Source: Armatimonadia bacterium
GTDB lineage: Bacteria; Armatimonadota; Zipacnadia; Zipacnadales; UBA11051
NCBI GenBank assembly: GCA_039683575.1
Contig: JBDKRC010000126.1
Coordinates: 1 to 13,785 of the forward strand
Reading direction: 5' to 3'
DNA length: 13,785 bases
Numbering within the stretch: position 1 is the stretch's first letter; each line of letters starts with the position of its first letter. The notes below the pieces were generated by a model. It searched no databases and was not told the DNA's origin. It worked only from the letters and a program-made list of their open reading frames with translations. The position numbers were made by a program, and so were the translations under genes. Positions 1,457-13,784 of the stretch are shown here, one piece after another.

Positions 1457-1480
1457 TCGCGCTCTGGTGAGCGCTCCTAC
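1457..1480 (-). repeat. GTAG-type REP-like palindrome, copy 1
   Basis: Minus strand reads GTAGGAGCGCTCACCAGAGCGCGA. Related copies at 2896-2920, 5043-5068 and 10666-10688. Confidence 0.75.
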
Positions 1481-2781
1481 AGGCTACCGGGGTGGCGGCT
1501 CTCTTTTGGGGGCCTAGCGCGGGATAGGAGGCGGTGAAGGGGCAGTCCGGCGGCGAGGGTTGTGAGGGGCATGTAGGGGACGCGCCAGCGGCTGTGGCCC
1601 TGGAGGAAGGCTACGGCTCCGGCGTAGAGCAGGGAGAGGAGGATGAGGCAGGCGAGGGACCTCAACTGAGGGTTGCGGGCCAAGACGAAGAGGCTACAGA
1701 AGGCGAGGAGCATCGTGGCGGTGCCAATGATGGCGGAGACGGCGGTCAGGGCTGCCGGGTTGGTGGTGAGGGCCGACAGGTAGCCCTTGCCGGGGCCGAG
1801 GATGGTGCCGAGGAAGCTTCGCACGAAGAGCTTAGCGGTGAGGGCCGGGTTGTCGCGGAAGATGGTAAGGGCCATGCTGGTCATCAGGCGGGAGTCGGTG
1901 AACTGGGACTGGGGTGTGCCGGTGATCCGGGCGCGGGCTTCGTCCCCTATGCGGTCAATGGCCTGATCCTGGCTGATACCGTCCCTGGCGGCCACGACGG
2001 CGGAGGCGTTGAAGAGCAGGAGGCAGTTGCCCGCGCCGGAAGAGAATTGGGGCGCGCCGAAGACGAGGGAGTTGCGTACAACCCAGGGGGTGAGGACGAG
2101 GAAGTATGCCGCGAGGAGGCAGGCGGCGCTTTTGAGGCTGAGGTACTTGCCGGCGCGCCAGTAGTGCAAGGCGGTGCAGGCGGCGAGGACAAGGGGCCAG
2201 AGCAGGGCGGCGGTGCGGACGTAGGCGGAGAGGGCGGCGAGGGCGCCGGTGGCGAGGAGGAGGAGCGTGGTGCGACGACCGGAGGATCGCCAGGCTGAGG
2301 CCAGCGCCCAGACGGCGAGGAGGTTGATGAGGGCGGCGAGGGTTTCGGTGAGGAAGAGGTTGGCGTAGATGACGCTGGGGAGGTCGATCGCGAGCAGGAG
2401 GCCGCCTGCTAACCCGGCTACGGGACCGGCGAGACGGTAGCCGAGGAGGCAGACGAGGCCGGCGGTGAGGGAACTGAGGACGATCTGGAGGAGGAGAACG
2501 GCCTGCGGGCGGTGGCCGAGGAGACGGTAGACGAGGGCGATCAGGGCGGGGTAGCCCGGCCCTCGCTCGGCGGCGGGAGCAAGGGCCGCGGGGTCGGCGG
2601 ATTCGCTGTAGACGCCGTGGAGGGCGAGGTTGAGGCCGAGGCGGTCGTAGGTCGGGGAGTCGATGTTGGTGAAGGCGAAGGGCGTGGTGGTGCTGAGGCG
2701 GTCGTGGCGGGTGACGGTGGCGTAGACCGCGAGACGGCAGATGAGGGCAAGGGTGACGACGATGATCAGGTGTTTGCGCAT
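1477..2781 (-). CDS. Multi-pass membrane glycosyltransferase, GT-C fold (ArnT/PMT-like, glycosyltransferase family 39-type)
   Basis: 434 aa with many hydrophobic segments. Motifs DSPTY..., RGPGYP.L.A..Y...G, LTETL, PW..RN and R.R.P are typical of bacterial PMT-like proteins. Confidence 0.8.
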   Translation of the reverse strand: MRKHLIIVVTLALICRLAVYATVTRHDRLSTTTPFAFTNIDSPTYDRLGLNLALHGVYSESADPAALAPAAERGPGYPALIALVYRLLGHRPQAVLLLQIVLSSLTAGLVCLLGYRLAGPVAGLAGGLLLAIDLPSVIYANLFLTETLAALINLLAVWALASAWRSSGRRTTLLLLATGALAALSAYVRTAALLWPLVLAACTALHYWRAGKYLSLKSAACLLAAYFLVLTPWVVRNSLVFGAPQFSSGAGNCLLLFNASAVVAARDGISQDQAIDRIGDEARARITGTPQSQFTDSRLMTSMALTIFRDNPALTAKLFVRSFLGTILGPGKGYLSALTTNPAALTAVSAIIGTATMLLAFCSLFVLARNPQLRSLACLILLSLLYAGAVAFLQGHSRWRVPYMPLTTLAAGLPLHRLLSRARPPKESRHPGSL

Positions 2782-2798
2782 GGTTGTGGACGGTGGGG

Positions 2799-2850
2799 CC
2801 TCGGCCCCGGCCCCTCCCCGTCAGACCGCAGGCGGTCTGCTGGAGAGGGG
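2799..2850. repeat. CCCCGGCCCCTCCCC...GGAGAGGGG palindromic element with inner hairpin
   Basis: CCCCTCCC (2811-2818) pairs imperfectly with GGAGAGGGG (2842-2850); inner CAGACCGC/GCGGTCTG inverted repeat at 2822-2839. Confidence 0.6.
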
Positions 2851-2895
2851 ATCAGCGGGTCGCAGGTGTCGGTTACCCCTGACGTTAGTCGGTGA

Positions 2896-2920
2896 GGTCG
2901 CGATCGGTGATCGCTCGTAC
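2896..2920 (-). repeat. GTAG-type REP-like palindrome, degenerate copy 2
   Basis: Plus strand GGTCGCGATCGGTGATCGCTCGTAC; GCGATC/GATCGC stem; flanked by AGG as in copy 1. Confidence 0.6.
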
Positions 2921-2934
2921 AGGCGGTCTTCAGA

Positions 2935-2959
2935 GAAGCAAACGTCGCTTCGCGCTCCA
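2935..2959 (-). repeat. Hairpin + GCGCTCCA (GGAG-type) REP-like unit
   Basis: GAAGC-AAACGTC-GCTTC-GCGCTCCA has the same layout as 12781-12803. Confidence 0.5.
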
Positions 2960-2976
2960 TGCGGCAGAGGCAACGA

Positions 2977-4050
2977 CTAGACTGGGCGGAGGTCTGGGAC
3001 TTCTACCGGGATGCTGCCCTGCTCGGCGGAGAGATGGGCGCAGATGCCGGGGAGGGTCTGGTCGAGGCCCTCGTAGACGTCAATCGGCGGCTTGGTGTCG
3101 TCGAGAATGCAGCGGATGAAGTCGTTGACCATGTAATACTCGGAGGTACCGTGGCCGCCCTTGAAGGCTTCCGGCGGGGCACCCTTGTGGGTGTCGGAGA
3201 GCGGGAGCTCGATCTGGCCGGCGAGGTGCGGGATGTCCTCGCGGTAGAGGCGGTGCTTGGCGCCGGGGAAGCGGGGGCTCTCGATCTGGCCCTTGGTCCC
3301 GTAGAGGACGAACCAGTGGTGGGCGGGCTCCTTGGCGACGGAGAAGCCGCAAAGCTGCTTGATGACGTTCCCCTTGGCGGTCTTGAAGATCCCCACTTCC
3401 ATGTCGATGACGCCGAGGTCGGGGCGGCGGCGGTTGCCGGTGTGCATGCCTACGGCGGAGACGACGCGATCCTGCATGATCATGAGCAGCGGGCCGAGGT
3501 CATGGGTGGGATAGAGAATTGGCGGCAGGGAGGCGCGCCAGGTCTTCTGGAGCTTGCCATCGGGGCCGGTCTCTTGCATGAGGCTTTCGCAGTTGTGGAT
3601 GTACTCGCCCTCGGCGTAGATGATCTCGCCGAGGTCGCCGCGCTGGATCATGGTGCGATAGGCGTCAACCCAGGCGTAGTAGCAGACGTTCTCGGCGAAC
3701 ATGTACTTGAGACCGGACTTCTCGACGGCGGCGGCGAGGTCGCGGGCCTGCTCGAGGCTGTAGGCGGCGGGGACCTCGGACATGATGTGCTTGCCGTGGG
3801 CGAGGGCCTCGAGGGCGCAGGGGACGTGGGTGGGGCCGGGAGTGGCGATCAGAATGGCGTCGAGGTCGGCCTCGCAGAACTTGGTGTAGTCATCGAACCA
3901 GTACGGGACGTCGTGTTCGGCCGTCCAGGACTTGGCGAGCTCGGTCTTGAGGTCGCAGCCAGCGACGACCTGGCAGTCTTTGTGGTTGAGAAAGACATTG
4001 GCGACACCGGCGCCACGGCGGAGGCCGGCGATACCGACTTTGAGGGACAT
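2977..4050 (-). CDS. Gfo/Idh/MocA family NAD(P)-dependent oxidoreductase
   Basis: Likely start MSLKVGIAGL at 4050 with AAGGAG 9 nt upstream. Motifs LDAILIATP..H, GKHIMSEVP, GDLGEI.Y.EGEY.H and YPTH.LGP. The ORF-track extension to 4206 is translated repeat sequence. Confidence 0.93.
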   Translation of the reverse strand: MSLKVGIAGLRRGAGVANVFLNHKDCQVVAGCDLKTELAKSWTAEHDVPYWFDDYTKFCEADLDAILIATPGPTHVPCALEALAHGKHIMSEVPAAYSLEQARDLAAAVEKSGLKYMFAENVCYYAWVDAYRTMIQRGDLGEIIYAEGEYIHNCESLMQETGPDGKLQKTWRASLPPILYPTHDLGPLLMIMQDRVVSAVGMHTGNRRRPDLGVIDMEVGIFKTAKGNVIKQLCGFSVAKEPAHHWFVLYGTKGQIESPRFPGAKHRLYREDIPHLAGQIELPLSDTHKGAPPEAFKGGHGTSEYYMVNDFIRCILDDTKPPIDVYEGLDQTLPGICAHLSAEQGSIPVEVPDLRPV

Positions 4051-4125
4051 GGGAGAAGGCTCCTTGGTGAGAGGTTGGAGGGGAGGTTCGACGGTGGGGG
4101 GAGGTTGGCCTTCTAGGGGAGAAGG

Positions 4126-4180
4126 GCGGGAACAGATGAGGCGGGAACGCGGGAACGGGTGAGGCGGGAACGGGAACGGC
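4126..4180. repeat. Short tandem GGGAAC-unit repeats
   Basis: Five GGGAAC units, including two TGAGGCGGGAACG(C)GGGAACGG-like blocks. A related GAGGCGGGGAACGGGGAACGG lies at 7802-7822. Confidence 0.7.
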
Positions 4181-4251
4181 GAGAGGGGGCAAGGAGGGTG
4201 CCGCATGTACGGCTACGGCGGTTAGGAGAGGGAGGTTGGAGTTCGCGGAGG

Positions 4252-4341
4252 GCGAAAACGGGGACAGACACCATTTTCGCATGGGAGTTAGTAGGTGATG
4301 GTTGGGAAGGTTGCGAAAGTGGTGTCAGTCCCCATTTTCGC
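4252..4341. repeat. REPIN-like doublet: two inverted 29-bp imperfect palindromes
   Basis: 4252-4280 GCGAAAACGGGGACAGACACCATTTTCGC vs the reverse complement of 4313-4341 GCGAAAATGGGGACTGACACCACTTTCGC: 26/29 identical, 32-bp spacer. Confidence 0.85.
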
Positions 4342-4356
4342 GTCGGTGATAACGGC

Positions 4357-4395
4357 GGGCCGGATGCCGACAGTGAGGCTGTCGGCATCCGGCCC
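4357..4395. repeat. Perfect 17-bp stem-loop just upstream of the large gene
   Basis: GGGCCGGATGCCGACAG-TGAGG-CTGTCGGCATCCGGCCC; no U-tract on either side. Confidence 0.85.
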
Positions 4396-4412
4396 CTCCA
4401 TGGGAGAATGAC

Positions 4413-7400
4413 ATGAAGTGGTATGGGCTGTGGCTGATGGCAATCTTCGTGGCTGGCTGGGTTTGGGCGCAGGGGGAGTGGCGGACGTCGGCGGCGGAGT
4501 TTGCGGAGACTGTGGCGGTGCCGGAGGGGAAGGGGGCGGTTGTGGCGGCGGTGCGGGTTGGCGAGGCTGGGGTGAAGATTGTGGTTGAGGGGACGGAGGG
4601 GGCGAAGAGGACGCTTACGTTGAGGGCGTTTGCAGATACGCTGCCGGCGGCAGGGGCGGCTGAGGCTAAGGAGTTGCCAGAGGCGGGGGTTGAGGTGGTT
4701 GAGGCGCGACTGCGGTACTATGTGCGGCCGAAGGTGGCGATGCTTAAGGGGGAGGCTCGGGAGAAGTGTGTGAAGGAGTGGGCGGGGATGCCGTCGGCGG
4801 GGACGCGCGGGGTAATGGTGGGGGCTGTGAACTATGGAGGCGGAGTGGCGCTCACGATTGAGGGGCGGTATGCGGGGATGGTGTTGGAGAAGGGGAAGGT
4901 GCGGTCGGTGCAGTTTGTGGTGAAGCCGGGGTCGGGGTTGGGAGGAGTGCGGGTTGAGGAGAGGGTGGAGGACGGGAGGTTTTGGAGGGTGGATTTGGGG
5001 GAGGTTGGTGAGGCGGGTTCCCTCGTTGGTGAGTTGGGCTCCGGTCGCGCTCAGGGGAGCGCTCCTACCGGGTTGCCAGGGGTTGCCGGGTGGGATTTGG
5101 GGAGGACTGCGGGGCAATCGGCGGCGTATTCCGAGTATACGAATCGGACGGGGTTTGATGGGCTTGGGGAATCGTTCATTGTTACGGTGCCGTCGGCGCA
5201 GTGGGTGCGGGCGTGGGTGCTTTGTGCGGCTGAGGAGGGTAAGGACACGGGGTTTACGGCGCGGTTGACGCGGTTTGTGCCGGGTGGGGCTTATACGGGG
5301 AGGGCGCGGGAGTGTCTGGCGGATACTGAGGTGCAGTTGCCGAGGGTGGGAGAGATGGCGGCGCCGGGGGTTGAGCGGGCTGGTGAGGTGACGCTGGGGG
5401 GGAAGAAAGTGCCGCTGTATCTGGTTGAGGTACCACTTAAGGCCGGGGATATTCAGGATCTGATCTTTGATGAGACGGCGAAGAACTGGCGGGGGATGCC
5501 GGGGCTCAGGGGTTACCTGGACTTTGAGATGCTCGGGAGGTTGAAGGAGCAGGATCGGCCGCATCCGTTTGGGGATGGGCGGTACTTCCCTGACCCGGCG
5601 CGGGTTAGCGGGGTCCATGTCTTTGGGGTGACGCTGGAGAAGACGCCGGTGGAGATGGAAGTGCGGCAGACGCAGCCGGGCAATATCTTCCAGGGCGATG
5701 AGGCGCCGGAGTTGCGGGTGGTTTTGCGGCCTAAGAAGGATGGGGCGTACAAGGTCAAGTGGGCGATGCGGGATGTGGATGGGAAGGCTTGTGGCTCGGG
5801 AGAGAAGACGCTGAGCTTGAAGGCGGGGGAGGCCGAGGTGACGGTGCCGGTTGCTCTGCGGCAGCCGCAGGTGGGGTGGTACGGGATTGCGCTGGGGCTG
5901 TGGGAGGGAGAGCGGGAGTTGGTGTGTCATGAGGCGAGCTTTGCGCTCCTGCCAAAGGACACGCGGCAGGCGGGGTATGAGTCGCCGTATGGGACATGGT
6001 GGTTTGATCACCACTATGGGACGGATGATGCCAAGATCATCGGGCCGATGATCCTGAAGGCGGGGTTCCGGAAGGTTGCCTATGCGGTGGCCCGGCACAA
6101 TGAGGCGGAGTTGGCTCCGTGGAAGTTCACGGCGGCCTCGGTTGGCTGGGGGGCGCTCAATAGGCCGAATGCTACGGATGAGGAGATTGCGGCGAAGATC
6201 GCCGAGACGATGAAGGCGTACCCGCACTGCGACAATTTGATGATCTTCCATGAGAGCATGCCGAATGCGCCGTTGGGGACGCGGACGGCGCCGGAACTGT
6301 TTGGGATGCCGGTGCAGGAAGCGGCGGGGGCGGAGGAGCGCTGGGCGCTGGCGACGCGGATCGCCAGGATTGCGCGGGCCAGGTTTCCGGGGTTGAGGAT
6401 ATACATTGGGAACTCGGGAGCGTCGTCGGAGCTGATTGCGGAGGGGATGCGGCGGAAGTTTCCGGCGGAGTATGCGGATTACATCGGTATTGAGACGGTG
6501 GGTAGGACTGGGCACCCGGAGAAGCTGTGGGAAGGCGGGTTGGGGGGCGTGTGGCTGCTGCGGGAGACGGCGCGGAAGTTCGGGTATCCATGGGGCGTGA
6601 CGAGCTGCTTTGAGACGAATTACCGGGAGGAGAGGCTGCTCGGACCGCAGCGGCTGGCGGAGTGGTATGTGCGGGATGTGCTGCTATCGCATGCGTACAG
6701 GTTCCCCCATATCGCGATTGCGCTTCTGCATGACACGGGCAACAGCTACAACGGGTCGTTCTGGGGCGGGACGGGGCTTTGTCAGCGGTATCCGCTGCTC
6801 TACCCGAAGCCGGCGTATGTGGCGATGGCGACGGTGACGCGGGTGCTGGACCGGGTGACTCTGAAACGGGAGGTGCCGACGGGGTCGAATTGCGTGTATG
6901 CGCTGGAGATGGCGCGGGCGGATGGGAAGACGGTGTACCCGGTATGGACGGCGCGGGGAACGGCGGTTTTGAGCGTGGCGATGAAGGGGTGTAAGAGCGT
7001 TGGGGTGGTGGACCTGTATGGGCGGAGCAGGACGGAGGCGGTGAAGGGCGGGAAGGTGGCGCTGGAGGCGGGGACGGCGGTGCAGTATGTGGTGACCGAG
7101 GGGAAGGTGACGGGGATTGTGTGTGGGAGACGGAGCTACCCCGACGATGCGCCGCCGAGGAGCTTCAGGATGGTTGACGCCATGAAGGACGTGCGGGAGT
7201 GGAAGCTGGCGACGGAGAAGGACCCGCTGATCGAGCAGACAGCGCAGCCACATCTCCCCTATCGCACGGCGGGGGAATTCGTCGTGCGAGGGGCTAAAGA
7301 TGCGCAGGTGGGCGAGTGTGTGGAGGTTGAGTTGGTGCCGCGGAAGGATTTGCCGACGCCGCTTCTGGGCCAGTATGGGATGCTGAGGCTGGCCAAGCCG

Positions 7401-7802
7401 GTGGTGCTGGAGGGAGAGCCGACGACGCTGGGGATGTGGGTGAAGGGGAATTCGGGGTGGGGCGACGTGTGGTTCGAGACGGAGGATGCGGCGGGAGTGC
7501 GGCGGGTGTCGTGCGGGACGGTGATGCACGATGCGGATGTGTATGACTATGACGGGCGAGTCGCAGTCAACTTCGATGGGTGGGCGTTTTTGAGCTTCCC
7601 GATGACCGACAAGTCGCCGATACCGGATCTGTCGACCGGGAGTGTGGGGAATCTGTGGGAGGCGACGGATCGGAGTAAGGCGGTGCAGTATCCGGTGAAG
7701 CTGACGGGGATTGGGTTCTGTGTGAGGCAGGACGTGATGGGGTTGACGGAGATGAAGCCGATGCGGCAGGTTCTGCGGTTTGGTGGGGTTGGGGCGTACT
7801 AG
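4413..7802 (+). CDS. Large secreted hypothetical protein (1129 aa), possibly glycoside hydrolase-like
   Basis: Signal-peptide-like N-terminus (MKWYGLWLMAIFVAGWVWA|Q) and GGGAGA RBS. Layout suggests an Ig-like segment (GNIF...), a central alpha/beta region ending GL...PKPAYVA (reminiscent of GH39/clan GH-A proteins) and a C-terminal beta-sandwich (LGMWVKGN...VNFDGWAFLSF). Function is inferred only. Confidence 0.8.
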   Translation: MKWYGLWLMAIFVAGWVWAQGEWRTSAAEFAETVAVPEGKGAVVAAVRVGEAGVKIVVEGTEGAKRTLTLRAFADTLPAAGAAEAKELPEAGVEVVEARLRYYVRPKVAMLKGEAREKCVKEWAGMPSAGTRGVMVGAVNYGGGVALTIEGRYAGMVLEKGKVRSVQFVVKPGSGLGGVRVEERVEDGRFWRVDLGEVGEAGSLVGELGSGRAQGSAPTGLPGVAGWDLGRTAGQSAAYSEYTNRTGFDGLGESFIVTVPSAQWVRAWVLCAAEEGKDTGFTARLTRFVPGGAYTGRARECLADTEVQLPRVGEMAAPGVERAGEVTLGGKKVPLYLVEVPLKAGDIQDLIFDETAKNWRGMPGLRGYLDFEMLGRLKEQDRPHPFGDGRYFPDPARVSGVHVFGVTLEKTPVEMEVRQTQPGNIFQGDEAPELRVVLRPKKDGAYKVKWAMRDVDGKACGSGEKTLSLKAGEAEVTVPVALRQPQVGWYGIALGLWEGERELVCHEASFALLPKDTRQAGYESPYGTWWFDHHYGTDDAKIIGPMILKAGFRKVAYAVARHNEAELAPWKFTAASVGWGALNRPNATDEEIAAKIAETMKAYPHCDNLMIFHESMPNAPLGTRTAPELFGMPVQEAAGAEERWALATRIARIARARFPGLRIYIGNSGASSELIAEGMRRKFPAEYADYIGIETVGRTGHPEKLWEGGLGGVWLLRETARKFGYPWGVTSCFETNYREERLLGPQRLAEWYVRDVLLSHAYRFPHIAIALLHDTGNSYNGSFWGGTGLCQRYPLLYPKPAYVAMATVTRVLDRVTLKREVPTGSNCVYALEMARADGKTVYPVWTARGTAVLSVAMKGCKSVGVVDLYGRSRTEAVKGGKVALEAGTAVQYVVTEGKVTGIVCGRRSYPDDAPPRSFRMVDAMKDVREWKLATEKDPLIEQTAQPHLPYRTAGEFVVRGAKDAQVGECVEVELVPRKDLPTPLLGQYGMLRLAKPVVLEGEPTTLGMWVKGNSGWGDVWFETEDAAGVRRVSCGTVMHDADVYDYDGRVAVNFDGWAFLSFPMTDKSPIPDLSTGSVGNLWEATDRSKAVQYPVKLTGIGFCVRQDVMGLTEMKPMRQVLRFGGVGAY
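5043..5068 (-). repeat. GTAG-type REP-like palindrome, copy 3, inside the CDS
   Basis: Plus strand GGTCGCGCTCAGGGGAGCGCTCCTAC, same TCGCGCTC-N4-GAGCGCTCCTAC layout as 1457-1480. Confidence 0.75.
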
Positions 7803-7837
7803 AGGCGGGGAACGGGGAACGGAAGGCGACGGTTGCT

Positions 7838-9058
7838 TTACTGCGCCGGCGTCTCGTTCACGATCACTAACGCCGGACGCGAGGTGCGCTGTGCTCCCAG
7901 CGCATCGGTGGCCATCACGAAGAAGCCGTGGACGCCCGGCCTGAGACCGGTCAGAACGAAACGCGCCGGTCCCGACGCAGTCTCGGCCAGCTTCTGCGCA
8001 CCGTCGTAGAGCGCGATCTGCCGCCATCCCGGCAGACCGGTGTCGTCTGCGGTGACAGTCAGGTTCGCTCCGGCATTGAGCACCCAGATGGCGCCCGATG
8101 GTGGGTTCGTGAGTCTCAGGGCGGGCGCGAAGGTGGCGTAGGCCCGGTAGATGAAGGCGGTATCCTCATCGGGAAGCCAACTGGTCGTTGCAGCCCTGGC
8201 GCCGGGGTCGGCATAGGGTGTAAGGCTCGTCAGCCCACTCCGCCAACTCGTGTTGTCAGCCAACCAGCCGGACGACAGGTCCAGCGTATTGAGGGCCACC
8301 GGACCCTGCCGAGGATCGGCCTGTGCAGGATAGCGCAGGCGTATGCAGTGGTCGAGGAACGGGATCGCAAGCGTAGCCTGGTCAGACTCGCGATGGGCCT
8401 GCCCTTCGACCATCGCCCAGGCAAAGTGCGCCCCACGAGGCCTGTGAGTCTGCATCGTCTCGGTCAGCAACGGGTTCAGACGCTCTTCCTGCTCACCCGA
8501 AAACATGCATACCGGCACGTCGAGCGCCGCCACCGGAACTTCCATGCGCATCGCCGATGACAGGGGGGCACTGGCAATCACCCGCTCCGGAAGCGTGTTC
8601 ACCAGCCTGTTCGCGAATCCCCCACCAGCAGAAAAGCCATAGGCCACGAAAGGGACGTCCACCAGTTCCGGGTGCCCGCTCTCGCCGGCGAAACGCTCCA
8701 AAGCATGCTCAAGGACAGTGACTGAGCCGACGTGAGAGTTGAACGCCCGGGCGCCGAGGAAGCCAAGGCCATGAAGCGCTGCGAAGGCCCTCAGGTACGG
8801 CAAGGTGTAGCGCTCGCGTGTGTCGCCGCCAGCCGCATTGGTGTTCACCAGCAGGCCGCGAATGGTCTCCAGACCAAGCGGGACAGCCAAGCGCACCGCC
8901 TTTTCCTGCCCTTCGTCAACCTCCGAGTAGTCATACGTAGCGAAGCCGACGGTGGACCCGGCGACCTGGGCTGCGGCGATCCCCGTGGCCGCTGCGAGCA
9001 GGAAGCCCACGAGCGCCCCAAGCCACCGGGTGGGTATCGTGACGGATTTGTATTTCAT
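7838..9058 (-). CDS. Secreted alpha/beta-hydrolase-fold protein with probable C-terminal Ig-like domain
   Basis: Start MKYKSV at 9058 with GGAGG 6 nt upstream; signal peptide ending AAA|Q; nucleophile elbow YGFSAGG; SGEQE and GQAH as candidate acid/His motifs; C-terminal G.H....ATD..GA..TS.P. Confidence 0.8.
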   Translation of the reverse strand: MKYKSVTIPTRWLGALVGFLLAAATGIAAAQVAGSTVGFATYDYSEVDEGQEKAVRLAVPLGLETIRGLLVNTNAAGGDTRERYTLPYLRAFAALHGLGFLGARAFNSHVGSVTVLEHALERFAGESGHPELVDVPFVAYGFSAGGGFANRLVNTLPERVIASAPLSSAMRMEVPVAALDVPVCMFSGEQEERLNPLLTETMQTHRPRGAHFAWAMVEGQAHRESDQATLAIPFLDHCIRLRYPAQADPRQGPVALNTLDLSSGWLADNTSWRSGLTSLTPYADPGARAATTSWLPDEDTAFIYRAYATFAPALRLTNPPSGAIWVLNAGANLTVTADDTGLPGWRQIALYDGAQKLAETASGPARFVLTGLRPGVHGFFVMATDALGAQRTSRPALVIVNETPAQ

Positions 9059-9082
9059 CTTAGGCCTCCGCAGCTTGACGCC

Positions 9083-9168
9083 TAGCGTGGGGCTGGGGGG
9101 CGGTAGCTCCATGACTGCCACTTCATCAGGTCGAGGAGGTGGGCGAAGTCGAGGCCCGCGCGGCGGTT
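9083..9168 (-). repeat. Orphan 86-bp duplicate of the 3' end of gene 10704-12143
   Basis: 82/86 identical to 10705-10790. Encodes NRRAGLDFAHLLDLMKWQSWSYRPPAPR* vs NRRAGLDFTHLFDLMKWQSWSYRPPAPR*. Confidence 0.97.
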
Positions 9169-9202
9169 TGAGTGTCCGTCCGGGACGGAGCGGGCCAGAG
9201 GC

Positions 9203-9847
9203 CTATTGCGGCATGGTGTTCGGCTGCGCGGTCCAGCCCGTCCAGGCGCGGTCCAGCATTGTGCGGGTGTTGATCCACTTGGCGTGGCCGTCGCAGAACA
9301 CGACGTTGTTCCCGCCGTTGTGCCGGCCGGGTACCGGTATCCCATTGTAGGGGTAGGTAGCGCTCTGGGGGATGGCGAAGATGCGTGGCGAGTAGTAGAA
9401 ATCCATCTGGACCGCTTGACCCGTGGCGTCGTAGTTCTCGCTCTCCCCTATCAGGAGGGCATCGGCCGGAGCGCTGATGCTCCCCAGCGCGGCTCCGCCC
9501 TTCCCGGTTCCACCCCCATTGTCCGGCATCAGATTGAAGTAACTGCAGCCATAGCCCAGAGTGAGTGTGCTACTGGGGCACCGGTAGATCTGCGTGTTCT
9601 TGATATACGGGGACATGAGGTACAGCCAGCTCTGGTATGCAGGCGGGAAGTTCATCGGGGGTAGCTTTTCGTCGAAATCCTGGGCGTAGGACAGCAGAGC
9701 GGTACCCAGTTGCCGGGCGTTGGCCAGACAGGAGGACTGGCGGGCCTTTTCGCGGGCCTTGGCGAAGACTGGGAAGAGGATCGCCGCGAGGATGGCGATG
9801 ATGGCGATGACTACCAGCAGTTCAATGAGAGTGAAGCCACGTCGCAT
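9203..9847 (-). CDS. Prepilin-type N-terminal cleavage/methylation and H-X9-DG domain protein (DUF1559-like), paralog of 494-1135
   Basis: [43 protein letters not shown]...; C-terminal [26 protein letters not shown]. Confidence 0.95.
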
Positions 9848-9944
9848 GGATATGCCTCCTGAATGATGGGCGCATCAGCAGTGGTGTTCGAGACCGATGG
9901 AGTCACTTCCTGCCAAGCCTCTCCGGAAACAGAGAGTGCGAATG

Positions 9945-10541
9945 TTAGCTTGTTAGTATCTGCAACCGTGCCAGACGACGGCCCAGGCCCTGCGCAGCCT
10001 TGAGCGCGAACTCATCCCCGGCGACCTGGCCCGGGGCGGCGGCCTGGCCGATGACCTCCCAGTTACCGTACGGCAGGCAAGCCGGGCCCAGCACGATCAT
10101 CCCGTGGTTGAAGCAGAAATCCATCACGGACCTCGCCGCCAGTTCCTGCCCGCCCCAGCGGCCTTCGCCCACCGCAATCACGCTGGCTGTGCGGTGCTGC
10201 AGAGTGTTCTCAGGGGACCAGATGGGCCGCGTACGGTCGATGAGCGCCTTGAGTTGAGCGCTCATGCCGCCCATGTAGGTGGGGGTGCCGAAGATGATCG
10301 CGTCCGCCCACAGCATCGCGGTCAAAACGGTGGACATGTCATCGTCAATGATACAGCGTTCGCCGGCAGCATGGTCCACGCAGTTCGCGCAGGCCTGGCA
10401 CGGGGCGATCTGAAGGTTGCATAGCTCAAGTAAGCGCGTCTCCGCGCCTTCGGCGGCCGCTGCCTCCAGACAACTGTTGCATAGCAAGGCAGTGTTGGAG
10501 TTGTGCCTGGGGCTTCCTGAGATGGCAAGTATGTGCTTCAT
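9945..10541 (-). CDS. Flavodoxin-family / iron-sulfur flavoprotein (NADPH-dependent FMN reductase fold)
   Basis: Start MKHILAISGSPR..SNT at 10541 (GAAGGGG upstream). CQACANC-x8-C.I.DDM motif; ADAIIFGTPTY.G.MSAQLKALIDR; GGQE. Confidence 0.92.
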   Translation of the reverse strand: MKHILAISGSPRHNSNTALLCNSCLEAAAAEGAETRLLELCNLQIAPCQACANCVDHAAGERCIIDDDMSTVLTAMLWADAIIFGTPTYMGGMSAQLKALIDRTRPIWSPENTLQHRTASVIAVGEGRWGGQELAARSVMDFCFNHGMIVLGPACLPYGNWEVIGQAAAPGQVAGDEFALKAAQGLGRRLARLQILTS

Positions 10542-10593
10542 ATGGTGCTGCCCCTTCCGAGAGTTCGTGCTCCCTGCATTGCGGAGTAAGGCC

Positions 10594-10658
10594 ACCCAGA
10601 TGGTCGCGCGGCGGGGTAGCGGATTCTACCCAGATGGTCGTAGATGGTCGCGCGGCGG
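10594..10658. repeat. Local triplication of AGATGGTCG
   Basis: ACCCAGATGGTCG at 10594 and 10628; AGATGGTCGCGCGGCGG at 10598 and 10642. Confidence 0.85.
10623..10628 (-). promoter_or_regulatory. Possible -10 box (TAGAAT) for the flavoprotein-prepilin pair
   Basis: Minus strand GGGTAGAATC resembles GGGTATAATC at 443-452; about 80 bp upstream of the ATG at 10541. Confidence 0.35.
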
Positions 10659-10665
10659 ACGGTAC

Positions 10666-10688
10666 GTCCGCACGGGGAGCGCTCCTAC
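10666..10688 (-). repeat. GTAG-type REP-like unit, copy 4 (partial palindrome)
   Basis: GGGGAGCGCTCCTACCGG is shared exactly with the copy at 5054-5071. Confidence 0.7.
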
Positions 10689-10703
10689 CGGCGGCAATGG
10701 CGG

Positions 10704-12143
10704 TTAGCGTGGGGCTGGGGGGCGATAGCTCCATGATTGCCACTTCATCAGGTCGAAGAGGTGGGTGAAGTCGAGGCCCGCGCGGCGGTTGGTTGAGCCG
10801 AAGCGGCGTTCGGCGATTGCCGGTTCGTCTACGCATATGGGCAGCATGGGAACCGGCGGGATTGTCACCGCGAGCGGGAGGTTGCCTGTGTCGGCGGACT
10901 GGATGATGAACTCGGCGGCAGCGTGGAGGAGTTCGGCGGGGCCGAGGTCGGTGAAGCTGGCGCGGAGCTGGCCCTTCAGGCGGCGCTGGTCGGACATGAT
11001 GGCGTAGGAGGTGAGGGCGCCGGCGAAGAGGTCCTCGCGGGAGATTGTCAGTGGGGCGCTCAGGTGCAGAGGGTGCTCGGTCGGGCCGAGGAGGCGCTGC
11101 ACCGGCACGCGGTCGGGCCACTTGCCGTATTCCCAACAGTACTGCAGGGCAAAGCAGAGCAGGCCAGCGATGTCAGCGCAGGAGAAGCTGGTGTCGCTAG
11201 CGGCGACGTAATTGAAGCTCGCGCGGACGGCGCGGGCGAGGGTTACCGTTTGCTCCCAGGTGAGCCAGCGGACGGGGTCCTCCTCGTTGCGGTCGCAGAG
11301 GCTGGCGTAGTTCGTGAGGTTCACGCCGGGGAGGGTCTTGAGCCAGCGAAGAGTACGGCGCACGAACTCGAAGGCATTGGCCTGGTCTTCCGGAGAGCGA
11401 GGCTGCATTTTGCGGAAGTGGCCGGGGCGAGGGTATGGGCCCGCGGAGCCGTTGCGGAAGAGCACGGCTTGCTCAGCGAGCGCCCATTCGGCGGTGACCC
11501 AGCAGACCGGATGGCCTGCGAAGGCTATGAAGTCCCTTGTCTGCGCCATGGCCTCAAACCGTTCCTGAATAGCTCGCAGGTCGGCTTGCGGGTCGCATGG
11601 GGGTTTGAGCTGATCCGGTTTGGTCGGGTCCACGCGGTGGAAGCAAGTGCCCTGGCTGGAAAGGCTGCAGCCCAAGCGGGGCCACGAGGGCCAGTCCATG
11701 ATCCAGCCGCGCATGCCGTCGCCCCAACAGCGAACACCGGCGAGTTTGTAGGCGTAGTACAGCGGCGGGCATTGCTGTTCCTGATGGCAGCACCAGGCTG
11801 CGGGGAACTGGCCGGTGATGTCGGCGACGTCGTGCAGGCCGGGGAGTTCGACGCTGAGGGCGTAGCTGACGGCGTCGTCCCAGGAGAGATCGGTGCCGTA
11901 GTGCAAGGCGGGCTCGGGGAAGTCGCCCCAGTAGTTGCCGTGGAAGCAGATCTCGTGTGGGCGCATGGCCTCGATGACGTCGAAGCGGCCACGGCGGCGG
12001 AGGGCACGGGCTTTCTCGCCTGCGATGAACAGGGAAACCGGGACTTCCTCCTCGGTGAAGATGCGGCAGAGCTGCAGAGCCGCGTCGTCAGACTCCGGAT
12101 GCACCACATCTTCAACGTCAAAAACAAAGACCACGTCTGTCAT
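10704..12143 (-). CDS. Hypothetical protein with N-terminal NodB/polysaccharide deacetylase-like domain
   Basis: VVFVFDVED (motif 1-like), SLFIAGEKA and HEICFHG; GGAGG RBS immediately after the upstream stop, so probably operonic. Confidence 0.75.
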   Translation of the reverse strand: MTDVVFVFDVEDVVHPESDDAALQLCRIFTEEEVPVSLFIAGEKARALRRRGRFDVIEAMRPHEICFHGNYWGDFPEPALHYGTDLSWDDAVSYALSVELPGLHDVADITGQFPAAWCCHQEQQCPPLYYAYKLAGVRCWGDGMRGWIMDWPSWPRLGCSLSSQGTCFHRVDPTKPDQLKPPCDPQADLRAIQERFEAMAQTRDFIAFAGHPVCWVTAEWALAEQAVLFRNGSAGPYPRPGHFRKMQPRSPEDQANAFEFVRRTLRWLKTLPGVNLTNYASLCDRNEEDPVRWLTWEQTVTLARAVRASFNYVAASDTSFSCADIAGLLCFALQYCWEYGKWPDRVPVQRLLGPTEHPLHLSAPLTISREDLFAGALTSYAIMSDQRRLKGQLRASFTDLGPAELLHAAAEFIIQSADTGNLPLAVTIPPVPMLPICVDEPAIAERRFGSTNRRAGLDFTHLFDLMKWQSWSYRPPAPR

Positions 12144-12155
12144 GGTTAGCCTCCG

Positions 12156-13784
12156 TCAGGGCTTGAGGGACTTCCCGGGGACGTAGGGGAAGGGCGGCGG
12201 GATGATTTGGGCGGCAGTGCGGTAGGTCTGGTTGTAGAGGGCGTCGTACTGCTCGACGGGTAGAGTAAGGCGCAGAGGGTGCCTGGTGTAGACGCGCAGG
12301 ACCTCGTGACTGTCGCGGGTGACGCTGAGGAGACCGCGGAAGCCGAGGGAGCGCATGAGGCGGTCAGGGTAGAGGTCGTATTGTTCGGGGATGACAGCGG
12401 CCTGAACGCGGACGGCGTTGTCGAGGAGGACGGGTTTGCGGGCAGGCTGGTCTATGTAACCGCCGGTGAGGGCCTCGCGGCCAAGGTACCAGTAGGCGAC
12501 CGAGGGGTCGTGGGCGACGAAGACCGGGACGGCGGGCGCGAGGTTCTGGCGGACCCAGTAGCCCGCGGTCTTCATGCCGGAGTTGGGGACGAGGCCGCCG
12601 TAGGGGATCTTGGGCGAAGGATACAGGGGGACGAAGGCGGGCACGCGGAAGACGCCGCCAAGGGTGGTGGCGGCGGTGGCGAGGACTATCAGGAGGCCGA
12701 GGACTGGGAGGGCACGGCGCGGAGCGGACAGGGATGCCCCTGCGACGGGGACGTCGCTTGGCGTACCTGCGGCTCCGGAGGCGGGCAGGATGCCCGCGCT
12801 CCAAACGGCGGAGAGAGAACGACAAGAGGAGAAGGCGAGGCCGATGAGGAGGCAGAGGGCGGCGGTCAGGTGGTGGTGGTAGCCGGAGGCTTCGGTTACC
12901 TTGCTGGTAACGGCGATCACGAACGGGAGGGCGGTCAGGCCGATCCAGGCCAGGAGCCATTGGTAGCGGCGGTCGCGGAAACAGCGGCGAAGCAGGATGA
13001 GGGCGACGGGAACGGCGATCAGGGCGACGAGGCCGAGGTTGACCCAGAGGTCGCGGAGGAACGGGATGAGGTGCAGGCCCCAGTCGGCTTTGTGCTCGCT
13101 GAGCATGGTGCCGAGGAAAGTCTGGTCGGGATAGCCGAGCTTGAGGGCGTAGAGGTAGACCGGGATGTAGGGCGCGAAGAGGACGATTGGCGGTAGGAGA
13201 GTGCCCGGGCGCACGAGGAGGCGGCGGAGGCCGCTGCAGCCGGTGTAGCCCTCGGGACGGGGCCAGAGGAGCACGAAGGCGATCAGGACGGAGCCGGTGA
13301 CGGCGAGTTGGACGTCGGCGCACATCCACAGGCCGACGGCGAGGCCGGCGAGCCACTGGCGGCGGGGGCTGCCGGGGGCTTCCCAGTAGCGCATGAGCAT
13401 CAGGACGGAGAGGACGAAGAGGAAGCCGTTGGCGGCCTCGGCGCCACCGATGGTACGGTGGCGGCCCACAAGGAGCGGAATGACGGCGAAGAGCGCGGCG
13501 GCGAGGAGGCCGGGGGTGTCGGTGCCATTGGCGAAGCGGCGAGCGACGAAGAAGACCAGCAGGCAGGTCAGGGCGCCGAGAATGACGAGCACGCCGGGAA
13601 GGGTGGCCTCGTTGACGGGCAGGTTGAGGGCCTCGAGGGCGCGGACGTAGAGGTAGTCGGCGACGAAAAGCGGGTAGCCGTAGTCCCAGCTCATGATCGT
13701 GGCGAGGGCGTTCTCGGAGGGCTGCGGCGAGAGGGGCGAAAGTGCGGCGCTGGTGCCGATGAAGCAGGACCGGAGCGCTTCGTC
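12156..13784 (-). CDS. Multi-pass membrane glycosyltransferase-like protein (GT-C/ArnT-like), 5'-truncated by the window edge
   Basis: Frame stays open beyond the ATG at 13694 to the window end (DEALRSCFIG...), giving a GT-C-like DE motif. Also GYP, GLLAAALFAVIP, many TM segments and a soluble C-terminal domain. Confidence 0.75.
   Translation of the reverse strand, partial: DEALRSCFIGTSAALSPLSPQPSENALATIMSWDYGYPLFVADYLYVRALEALNLPVNEATLPGVLVILGALTCLLVFFVARRFANGTDTPGLLAAALFAVIPLLVGRHRTIGGAEAANGFLFVLSVLMLMRYWEAPGSPRRQWLAGLAVGLWMCADVQLAVTGSVLIAFVLLWPRPEGYTGCSGLRRLLVRPGTLLPPIVLFAPYIPVYLYALKLGYPDQTFLGTMLSEHKADWGLHLIPFLRDLWVNLGLVALIAVPVALILLRRCFRDRRYQWLLAWIGLTALPFVIAVTSKVTEASGYHHHLTAALCLLIGLAFSSCRSLSAVWSAGILPASGAAGTPSDVPVAGASLSAPRRALPVLGLLIVLATAATTLGGVFRVPAFVPLYPSPKIPYGGLVPNSGMKTAGYWVRQNLAPAVPVFVAHDPSVAYWYLGREALTGGYIDQPARKPVLLDNAVRVQAAVIPEQYDLYPDRLMRSLGFRGLLSVTRDSHEVLRVYTRHPLRLTLPVEQYDALYNQTYRTAAQIIPPPFPYVPGKSLKP
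12721..12803. repeat. REP/REPIN-like element inside the CDS
   Basis: Bounded by GGAGCG...CGCTCC; contains GCGGGCAGGATGCCCGC-GCTCCA at 12781-12803 and a GCGACG-GGGA-CGTCGC hairpin. Confidence 0.75.

Follow-up and report, generated by a model that had tools for sequence, protein, structure and literature searches.

A duplicated gene end in an Armatimonadia genome as a possible scar of one-sided recombination between strains

The locus and its repeat

The window (the whole stretch of 13,785 nucleotides that we analysed, on contig C126) comes from a genome of 6.2 Mb in 352 contigs that is 96% complete with 2% contamination. It contains a variable spot between two convergent genes, which we call the anchor gene and the large gene, and several alleles are present at this spot (Table 1).

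Table 1. Genes and other features at the variable spot
Feature	Positions	Strand	Remarks
Large gene, 1129 aa	4413..7802	+	Convergent right flank; candidate recombination anchor
Right edge of the variable spot, with a terminal GGGGAAC tandem	7803..7822	+	Contigs of three runs diverge at 7822
Alpha/beta-hydrolase-like gene, 406 aa, likely secreted	7838..9058	-	GFSAG motif, Atlas neighbours
Orphan tail: last 28 codons repeated, with TAG	9082..9168	-
Spacer, 34 nt, with 6-bp hairpin	9169..9202	-	Unique in genome (1 fuzzy match, itself)
Prepilin-type N-terminal / H-X9-DG (DUF1559) gene	9203..9847	-	PF07963, PF07596, TIGR04294
NADPH-dependent FMN reductase / flavodoxin-family gene	9945..10541	-	PF03358; resident allele in close relatives
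REP-like repeats	about 10580..10700	.	Behind anchor stop codon; many genome matches
Coding copy of the repeat	10705..10790	-	Last 28 codons, then TAA
Anchor gene, 479 aa, possibly polysaccharide-deacetylase-like	10704..12143	-	Single copy; left flank of variable spot

The final 28 codons of the anchor gene (10704-12143) are present a second time, as an orphan tail. A sequence-only reading of the window had pointed out this 86-bp duplication of the gene's 3' end, and our searches agree: the copies (9083-9168 and 10705-10790) lie 1622 bp apart and match at 82 of 86 positions (E 6e-32, searched against the whole 6.2-Mb genome), and these two are the only copies, with no third in the genome. That reading was also right that just a flavoprotein gene, a prepilin/H-X9-DG gene, and repeats lie between the copies, as the domain matches bear out, and that the stop codon of the orphan is 23 nt from the ATG of the hydrolase gene. 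The stop codon of the prepilin gene is 34 nt from the orphan. On the coding strand, the copies differ by four transitions, two synonymous and two non-synonymous (a 2:2 ratio that is uninformative), and the stop codon is TAA in the gene and TAG in the orphan. The nucleotide similarity of the copies stops sharply at 9168, and from this abrupt end we infer a non-homologous joint at 9168/9169. Just before the repeat, the copies share 4 nt more, shifted by 3 nt.

The orphan is not a decayed tandem paralogue: only residues 437-479 match, real identity is limited to the last 28 of these, and the nucleotide match goes no further than the sharp joint. Nor does it look like the product of a diversity-generating retroelement (TR/VR). 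The template of such an element carries adenine at the variable positions, and the orphan has G, C, G, C, and G at the five differing positions, with no adenine.

The labels of "deacetylase" and "hydrolase" that the sequence-only reading gave to the neighbouring genes can be kept as weak ones. The anchor protein has no Pfam or NCBIfam match; PF01522 is present in 14% of the members of its Atlas neighbour cluster, and its alignment to the allantoinase PuuE (E 0.096) is a weak CE4-like lead. Anchor-gene homologues are found in 31 of 41 genomes, including its own. The hydrolase label comes from the GFSAG motif and from Atlas neighbours (at 0.86-0.89) whose families are those of alpha/beta-hydrolases. 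The hydrolase, which is in a cluster of 2, is also patchy: it is found in 0 of 15 genomes of the family and, at 71-75% identity, in three other families. The flavoprotein is in a cluster of 6 (92-98% identity) and had no match at E<1e-40 among 40 relatives. The prepilin is in a cluster of 5 (92-98%) and has many paralogues in the genome (183 tblastn hits). The REP-like repeats, whose 15-nt core is present 104 times in the genome, are presumably of the GTAG type.

GC skew is flat over 7800-10600, compared to +0.2 to +0.5 in the flanks. We discarded this because the three inner genes are ordinary genome-wide (the hydrolase is at the 23rd percentile, the flavoprotein at the 46th, and the prepilin at the 67th) and it is the flanks that are extreme (90th-99th).

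Gene order in relatives and in other strains

In all three of the close relatives that are readable, the order appears to be anchor gene, flavoprotein, prepilin, large gene. We read this from the order of accessions and the room on contigs, which give the large gene, the prepilin, and the flavoprotein with nothing between them and no hydrolase; in the anchor, flavoprotein, and prepilin, these relatives have 97.5-98.8% protein identity. In the first relative, the proteins are MEN6400768/769/770, then 772, and the locus tags from 02385 to 02405 allow exactly three features. In the second, the accessions are consecutive (MEN6304872/873/874). In the third, P0018 and P0022 are on one contig of 4136 bp, with 326 nt to spare where 1346 would be required. 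Because the relatives have the flavoprotein and the prepilin without the hydrolase, what is missing from the allele seen elsewhere is the 1346-bp block of tail and hydrolase (7823-9168), not the 1622-bp unit. The sequence-only reading had proposed to look in relatives for a site without the unit, and all three have it. Its idea of a native deacetylase-hydrolase operon also lacks support, given that the hydrolase was found in none of the 15 genomes of the family and that, in the three relatives, it appears to be absent from between prepilin and large gene. These relatives, which are known here from protein records, may also hold an orphan tail between those two genes.

The unit is already beside the anchor gene in a sister lineage (87-88%), where anchor and flavoprotein are on one 2496-bp contig (P0007 and P0015, with 87% and 96% identity). 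So the unit is unlikely to be a newly arrived cassette, as had been proposed: it is resident in the close relatives and together with the anchor gene in the sister lineage. A second set of proteins from the sister lineage (P0006, P0009, and P0013; 88-93%) places anchor, hydrolase, and flavoprotein on one contig of 6337 bp, in some order. Its hydrolase (P0009) is 92.6% identical, a divergence like that of its neighbours, and the hydrolase thus appears to be old in the wider lineage. Judging from this contig, the whole array may be older than the orphan tail. Because the sister lineage has the unit, and the tail has the M466 and K467 of its own clade only (its residues are LMK, not the sister lineage's LLR), the orphan tail is probably younger than the arrival of the unit.

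None of eight loci with orthologues of the anchor gene has an orphan tail. We also found no nucleotide match to the tail at the loci of hydrolase homologues, and 0 matches to the tail motif in metagenome and viral contigs. Protein scans gave one distant locus for the anchor and two for a relative of the hydrolase. The GTDB relatives of the genus (67-68% identity, no synteny in seven loci) are too distant to reveal whether the site was once empty.

We compared the window to contigs from four of the 20 sequencing runs listed, all of other strains (X1 and X2 are from one study). In X1 (record 5), X2 (record 12), and X5 (record 21), the match ends exactly at 7822 and other sequence follows. Another X5 contig (record 22) departs at 10701, so X5 departs at both ends of the variable spot. 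In X1, record 6 aligns without gaps over 10000-12611 (58 mismatches), and the flavoprotein is contiguous with the anchor. Identity of X1 to the window is 97.8% over anchor and flavoprotein, versus 92-94.5% over the large gene, and in X2, too, anchor and flavoprotein are nearer to the window than the flanks are. The depth of X1 is 3.94 in the bin 8281-8740, which implies that there is something hydrolase-like in this run. In 4 of 4 runs, the hydrolase has low depth, but this is lack of cover and we do not count it as evidence, nor do we count the X7 contig, which ends at 7653 and is uninformative on the border. Neither the joint from 7822 to the tail nor the junction of an excised 1622-bp circle is among the 15 of 146 joints listed, all of which are on contigs from other strains.

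Of 15 window-private changes in the large gene, 11 are in residues 850-970, compared to 11 of 35 in two relatives (p 0.011 by permutation), which is a weak sign that the gene may contain a foreign tract. Private changes are also clustered in the gene beyond the anchor, so mosaicism is general. In the anchor protein, there is no window-private change in the C-terminal 270 residues, that is, in its C-terminal half.

Orphan tails and recombinases across the genome

Across the genome, we found 10 orphan tails at seven unrelated genes, in a census that is limited by high-copy repeats and by gene calls specific to this analysis. From 14 rows of downstream tails, we dropped C47 and C49 (weak or REP-like, with no gene between) and C80 and C288 (the match runs 59-166 nt past the stop codon). 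From seven rows of gene heads, we dropped three prepilin leaders, one paralogue, and two contig-edge or repeat-protein rows. This gives seven tail loci versus one head stub (p 0.07 only). The tails are 38-297 nt long and 83-95% identical to the ends of their anchors, which are genes for a threonyl-tRNA synthetase (ThrRS), an Eco57I-like protein, a CN hydrolase, a TIM barrel, a DUF2961 protein, an abhydrolase, and the 479-aa anchor gene. The codon differences are 87 synonymous versus 30 non-synonymous (38 versus 17 if C235 is removed), where 25% would be expected to be synonymous, and the 5' ends vary: 297 versus 82 nt at one anchor, and 223, 227, and 41 nt at another. (The 479-aa gene has one tail only.) Because the differences are mostly synonymous and the 5' ends are variable, we think that the tails are alleles from other strains, not decayed copies. 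The excess of G and C in the orphan is absent across the census (52 versus 53), so we rejected a directional bias. In 7 of 7 loci, the first cargo gene is on the same strand as the anchor. By eye, no sequence is common to the seven anchors, and the cargo that was scanned had no match to a recombinase.

The sequence-only reading had noted the lack of a recombinase near the unit, and indeed contig C126 has no match to PF00589 or PF07508, and the unit has only the flavoprotein and prepilin genes. Elsewhere in the genome there are 12 matches to tyrosine recombinases and 5 to serine recombinases, as well as two att pairs of the tRNA type that enclose recombinases (C10 and C149). The unit is unlikely to be an integron cassette: the genome, at 96% complete, has 0 matches over the cut-off to the integrase IntI (TIGR02249). 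The uptake genes over the cut-off are comEC (partial, at a contig edge), two copies of dprA, and comM; the same genes are found in 8-10 of 14 control genomes, and their presence is not equivalent to competence.

How the repeat may have formed

We give an even chance to the view that unequal recombination without an integrase joined two alleles and left the repeat as its scar, and that tail and hydrolase (7823-9168), rather than the 1622-bp unit, are the likely addition. The event would be similar to homology-facilitated illegitimate recombination (HFIR), which has one homologous and one illegitimate end (PMC3240628, PMC5361080). A donor strain of the same species would have had the order gene, hydrolase, large gene. 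A fragment of its DNA would have recombined through the long homology in the large gene, and the fragment's other end, where homology was limited to 86 bp, would have been attached by a non-homologous joint at 34 nt behind the prepilin gene, which is the geometry of HFIR. What looks like a duplicate would in that case be the end of the anchor gene as the donor had it, carried along as a passenger, and the hydrolase gene likely travels together with it. We assume that the DNA was taken up by natural transformation. An allele with the gene followed by the hydrolase must have existed as one parent, and we saw it in none of the relatives. As for the small circular or recombination-mediated cassette of the sequence-only reading, the idea that an insertion by recombination left a gene end behind, without a recombinase close by, still seems right, while that of the unit as the new arrival does not.

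It is possible, if less than probable, that the polarity was the opposite, which would be close to the sequence-only reading but without att sites. The resident would have had gene, hydrolase, and large gene, and an incoming fragment from a strain of the common type, with gene end, REP, flavoprotein, and prepilin, would either have formed a circle and entered through a single crossover within the 86 bp or have been anchored in the gene, and would have displaced the old tail and the hydrolase. In the laboratory study, incoming DNA that was partly degraded and circularised gave gene-end duplications of 109-950 bp by a single crossover in 56 of 60 clones. HFIR is seldom seen in experiments, and circles integrated about 10 times more often in E. 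coli conjugation (PMC3240628). The identity gradient of X1, which X2 shares, and the anchor's C-terminal half without private changes fit this polarity just as well, and a hydrolase that is old in the wider lineage would favor it. So would two census loci: at C27, the farther tail appears more decayed, and at C235, the last tail is followed by 9 nt and a convergent gene, with no cargo (a serine recombinase is just upstream of that anchor). On the other hand, the recipient must have had the rare allele, which 0 of 3 readable relatives have; the crossover must have fallen within 86 bp at 95% identity; and the census tails of down to 38-41 nt, at 83-87%, would probably be poor substrates for single crossovers. 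We consider it fairly unlikely that the array itself is old, with a tail from the first entry of flavoprotein and prepilin, or a hydrolase added later, a tail that was gene-converted, and relatives that lost or never gained the hydrolase. The 6337-bp sister contig, with a hydrolase about as diverged as its neighbours, and the 326 nt of room for a tail in a relative would agree with this, but the tail is wholly of its own clade's type, so conversion must span all 86 bp, and the joint from 7822 to the tail is missing from the 15 of 146 joints listed.

Integrative elements that enter at the 3' ends of genes (attL/attR) leave an intact gene and a displaced 3' fragment on the far side. That the repeat is such a pair, from a non-autonomous element whose recombinase is encoded elsewhere, is very doubtful. 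The geometry fits and the genome has recombinases and att pairs to spare, but here there is no recombinase, no fixed core at the sister loci, and a unit that is a resident allele; the seven anchors are unrelated, the 5' ends differ even at one anchor, the orthologous loci lack the tail, its motif is unmatched in viral or metagenome contigs, and no integron integrase is over the cut-off. So we do not retain the attL/attR likeness that had been suggested. A dedicated, integrase-independent gene capture at the 3' ends of ordinary genes, which stacks co-directional cargo like an integron without att sites and of which the 86-bp repeat is one footprint, seems quite improbable to us, although the seven tail loci versus one head stub and the shared strand of anchor and first cargo gene would suit it; under it, the repeat could let the 1622-bp unit loop out and bring the hydrolase beside the anchor. 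An assembly that is a chimera of two strains is hardly credible, even for a genome with so many contigs, some contamination, and several alleles at the spot. The 9168/9169 joint is in unique sequence, so the assembler needs a real molecule across it; also, six further loci have the same pattern and a sister-lineage contig has the same three genes.

To return to the HFIR-like joining of two alleles, the pattern is already known at rhs/T6SS and restriction-modification loci. Displacement of the C-termini of rhs genes was reportedly described by Jackson et al. in 2009. In the sequential displacement of T6SS effector-immunity genes, as the available text describes it, there are also orphan 3' pieces, stacked accessory genes, a conserved anchor, and no integrase, and HFIR is held responsible, but there a new toxin domain replaces the C-terminus, and the swap is under selection (Kirchberger et al. 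2017, PMC5361080). Here the product is unchanged, the anchors are ordinary genes, ThrRS included, and the cargo is unrelated. HFIR and the integration of re-circularised fragments share with our locus one homologous anchor, an arbitrary joint, gene-end duplications, and the lack of a recombinase, although the cases in the available portions were laboratory selections (Amarir-Bouhram et al. 2011, PMC3240628), while ours would be inferred from a natural genome. Insertions with long target duplication, in the sections available, have repeats over 30 bp, inserts under 20 kb, and no mobile-element genes (Furuta et al. 2010, PMC2853133), and our locus, with 86 bp, 1622 bp, and no mobile element, agrees. 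Their repeats are 95-100% alike, some are over a gene's 3' end, and most are in competent species (PMC2853133); unlike theirs, our insert has no restriction-modification genes, and our repeat resembles a foreign allele, not a copied target. Finally, hotspots of gene transfer that lack integrases are hypervariable, with several alleles and turnover via recombination in the flanking genes, but the double crossover in the available account leaves no scar (Oliveira et al. 2017, PMC5635113), and ours would be a failed, one-sided version. In the literature listings searched, which leave out subscription journals, there was no description of such tails for Armatimonadota.

Our results caution against the assumption that the DNA between two att-like repeats is what moved: at this locus, the genes inside the repeat belong to the resident allele, and it is the rare piece that is found outside. 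If the HFIR-like reading is true, then each orphan tail of a gene is a fossil, which can be counted, of a one-sided recombination event between strains, and a process that has mostly been measured in laboratory selections would be visible in an uncultured lineage without genetics. The lengths of the tails, along with the tracts of SNPs that flank them across strains, would then gauge this process in nature.

The duplicated gene end

The source genome is assembled in 352 contigs (6.2 Mb), and the window is the complete contig C126. The sequence-only reading had reported an 86-bp direct repeat, which holds up: 82 of 86 positions are identical, the spacing is 1622 bp, and there is no third copy in the 6.2-Mb assembly. 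The repeat is the final 28 codons of a 479-aa gene (the anchor). A 406-aa gene starts, with ATG, 23 nt beyond the stop of the second copy (the orphan tail). Between the copies is a unit with a REP-like repeat, an FMN-reductase-family (flavoprotein) gene, and a prepilin/H-X9-DG gene. The earlier labels for the anchor ("deacetylase") and the 406-aa gene ("hydrolase") are leads only. Third-position GC skew places both the large and the last gene at the genome's 99th percentile. Also, the first prepilin gene, which is flanked by short repeats, lies in a second variable spot, as contigs from two public runs with related strains (X5 and X7) jump from 330 to 1384.

Features of the window and of other contigs of the same genome
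Feature	Location	Strand
Short repeats	246-409, 1158-1189, 1347-1380	
First prepilin gene	494-1135	
Third-position GC skew 0.50-0.67	1477-7802, 12156-13694	
Large gene, 1129 aa	4413-7802	+
Hydrolase gene	7838-9058	
Orphan tail	9083-9168	
Prepilin gene of unit	9203-9847	
Flavoprotein gene	9945-10541	
Repeat copy in anchor	10705-10790	
Anchor gene	10704-12143	-
Stretch with the last gene	12156-13694	
Threonyl-tRNA synthetase locus (L033)	C26:18225-21594	
5' head stub	C344:1921-2905	
Possible retroelement	C320:249-2229	
Its repeat pair	C320:1442-1563, 2108-2229	
Island, 21 kb	C10:35023-56054	
Island, 10 kb	C149:7811-17648	

Alleles and age of the spot

The relatives in GTDB have diverged too far for a comparison of synteny. 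No orphan tail was found at eight orthologue loci, examined within 1.9-10 kb, and the hydrolase was not found in any of the 15 family genomes searched; it does occur, at 71-75%, in three other families. We also compared assembled contigs from 4 of 20 listed public runs, whose strains are 90-98% alike. Records from X1, X2, and X5 lose the match at exactly 7822 and continue for 719, 586, and 44 letters, and X5 record 22 departs at 10701. X1 record 6, in turn, covers flavoprotein, repeat, and anchor gene with no gap. So the interval between the two convergent genes is a variable spot with several alleles.

For closer relatives, we read gene order from accession order and contig sizes in protein clusters; by this measure, 3 of 3 have the genes of the 1622-bp unit and appear to lack the hydrolase. 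MEN6400768, 769, 770, and 772 are the large gene, prepilin, flavoprotein, and an anchor piece, and the locus tags leave no room for a hidden feature. MEN6304872, 873, and 874 are flavoprotein, prepilin, and large gene. MEN6546075, 076, and 077 are last gene, anchor, and flavoprotein; there, the prepilin and large gene are both listed on one contig, whose 4136 bp cannot also accommodate the hydrolase block. In two relatives (P0003 and P0004), the anchor protein piece has 163 aa, and the gene is seemingly split there.

The orphan tail is younger than the split from a sister lineage (anchor 87-88%), and the unit's position is older. The anchor's C-terminal residues are W..LLR in the sister lineage, F..LMK in this clade, and L..LMK in the orphan tail, and one 2496-bp sister contig already has anchor and flavoprotein together. 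The hydrolase is also old near the spot, because anchor, flavoprotein, and hydrolase (92.6%) co-occur, in an order that was not read, on a 6337-bp contig of another sister-lineage set. This counts against a simple history.

Orphan tails across the genome

From 4,728 genes (called for this analysis), we took 3,881 tails, 3,912 heads, and segments at three inner positions (3,998 per position) as probes. We looked for low-copy direct repeats of them at most 15 kb away, with the copy outside long same-strand genes. After inspection, we kept 10 of 14 downstream tail rows, at 7 genes, and 1 of 7 head rows (7 versus 1 loci, p 0.07). The four inner-position rows were rejected as contig-edge, repeat-protein, or long tail. 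The anchors are mutually unrelated. Cargo proteins scanned at these loci match no recombinase family, although a serine recombinase gene lies directly upstream of the anchor on C235. None of the tails (38-297 nt, 83-95% identity) ends more than 15 nt from the stop, and their 5' starts vary, even at a single gene. Of the codon differences from the genes, 87 are synonymous and 30 non-synonymous, against an expected synonymous share of 25%, so the copies are alleles that diverged while both were coding. A dedicated route of tail-directed gene capture, the boldest of the readings considered, is very unlikely.

At L033, the orphan tail (105-130 nt) lies 1.38 kb downstream of the synthetase gene, and the gene between has no Pfam match. 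Other tail scars follow Eco57I-like, CN-hydrolase, TIM-barrel, and DUF2961 genes (L034, L035, L036, and L039 on C39, C204, C293, and C80), with cargo that includes a TIR-domain gene and a rhomboid gene. The one clear head stub (61 nt, 82%) is upstream of a flavodoxin-family gene. In contrast to the tail scars, the C10 and C149 islands, with recombinases inside and tRNA-end-like repeat pairs at their flanks, are ordinary att elements.

Which side came in

In homology-facilitated illegitimate recombination (HFIR), one end is homologous and the other is an illegitimate joint (PMC3240628 and PMC5361080). The locus reads as a left parent (anchor gene, flavoprotein, prepilin, and 34 nt) joined to a right parent (86-nt tail, hydrolase, and large gene), and HFIR yields products of this kind. 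We favor the right parent as the incoming DNA, at roughly even chances, because the left allele is common and the large gene offers a long anchor, because 86 bp would be short for a second crossover, and because window-private changes are concentrated at residues 850-970 of the large gene (p 0.011). That the left parent came in instead is possible at lower probability: X1 is nearest to the window across anchor and flavoprotein, and in E. coli (PMC3240628), 56 of 60 clones in which re-circularised DNA had integrated by a single crossover carried gene-end duplications of 109-950 bp.

An older array whose tail was refreshed seems improbable. The suggestion that the repeats are attL and attR of an element failed both the recombinase test and the empty-site test. 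Att sites used in trans are very unlikely, and we give a chimeric assembly hardly any weight. A decayed paralogue failed the remnant test, and a diversity-generating retroelement failed the adenine test at the 86-bp repeat. Separately, C320 has a possible retroelement of this kind: by eye, a 348-aa ORF there looks RT-like and a 119-aa ORF Avd-like, and two 122-bp repeats match at 92%.

Among papers outside subscription journals, our search found none on such scars in Armatimonadota. In its repeat, but not in its cargo, the locus fits the definition of insertion with long target duplication (PMC2853133), and it is situated in an integrase-less hotspot (PMC5635113). It works like the HFIR-type displacement at rhs/T6SS loci. 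Finally, the source genome has comEC, dprA, and comM, whose presence alone is no proof of natural transformation but is compatible with it.
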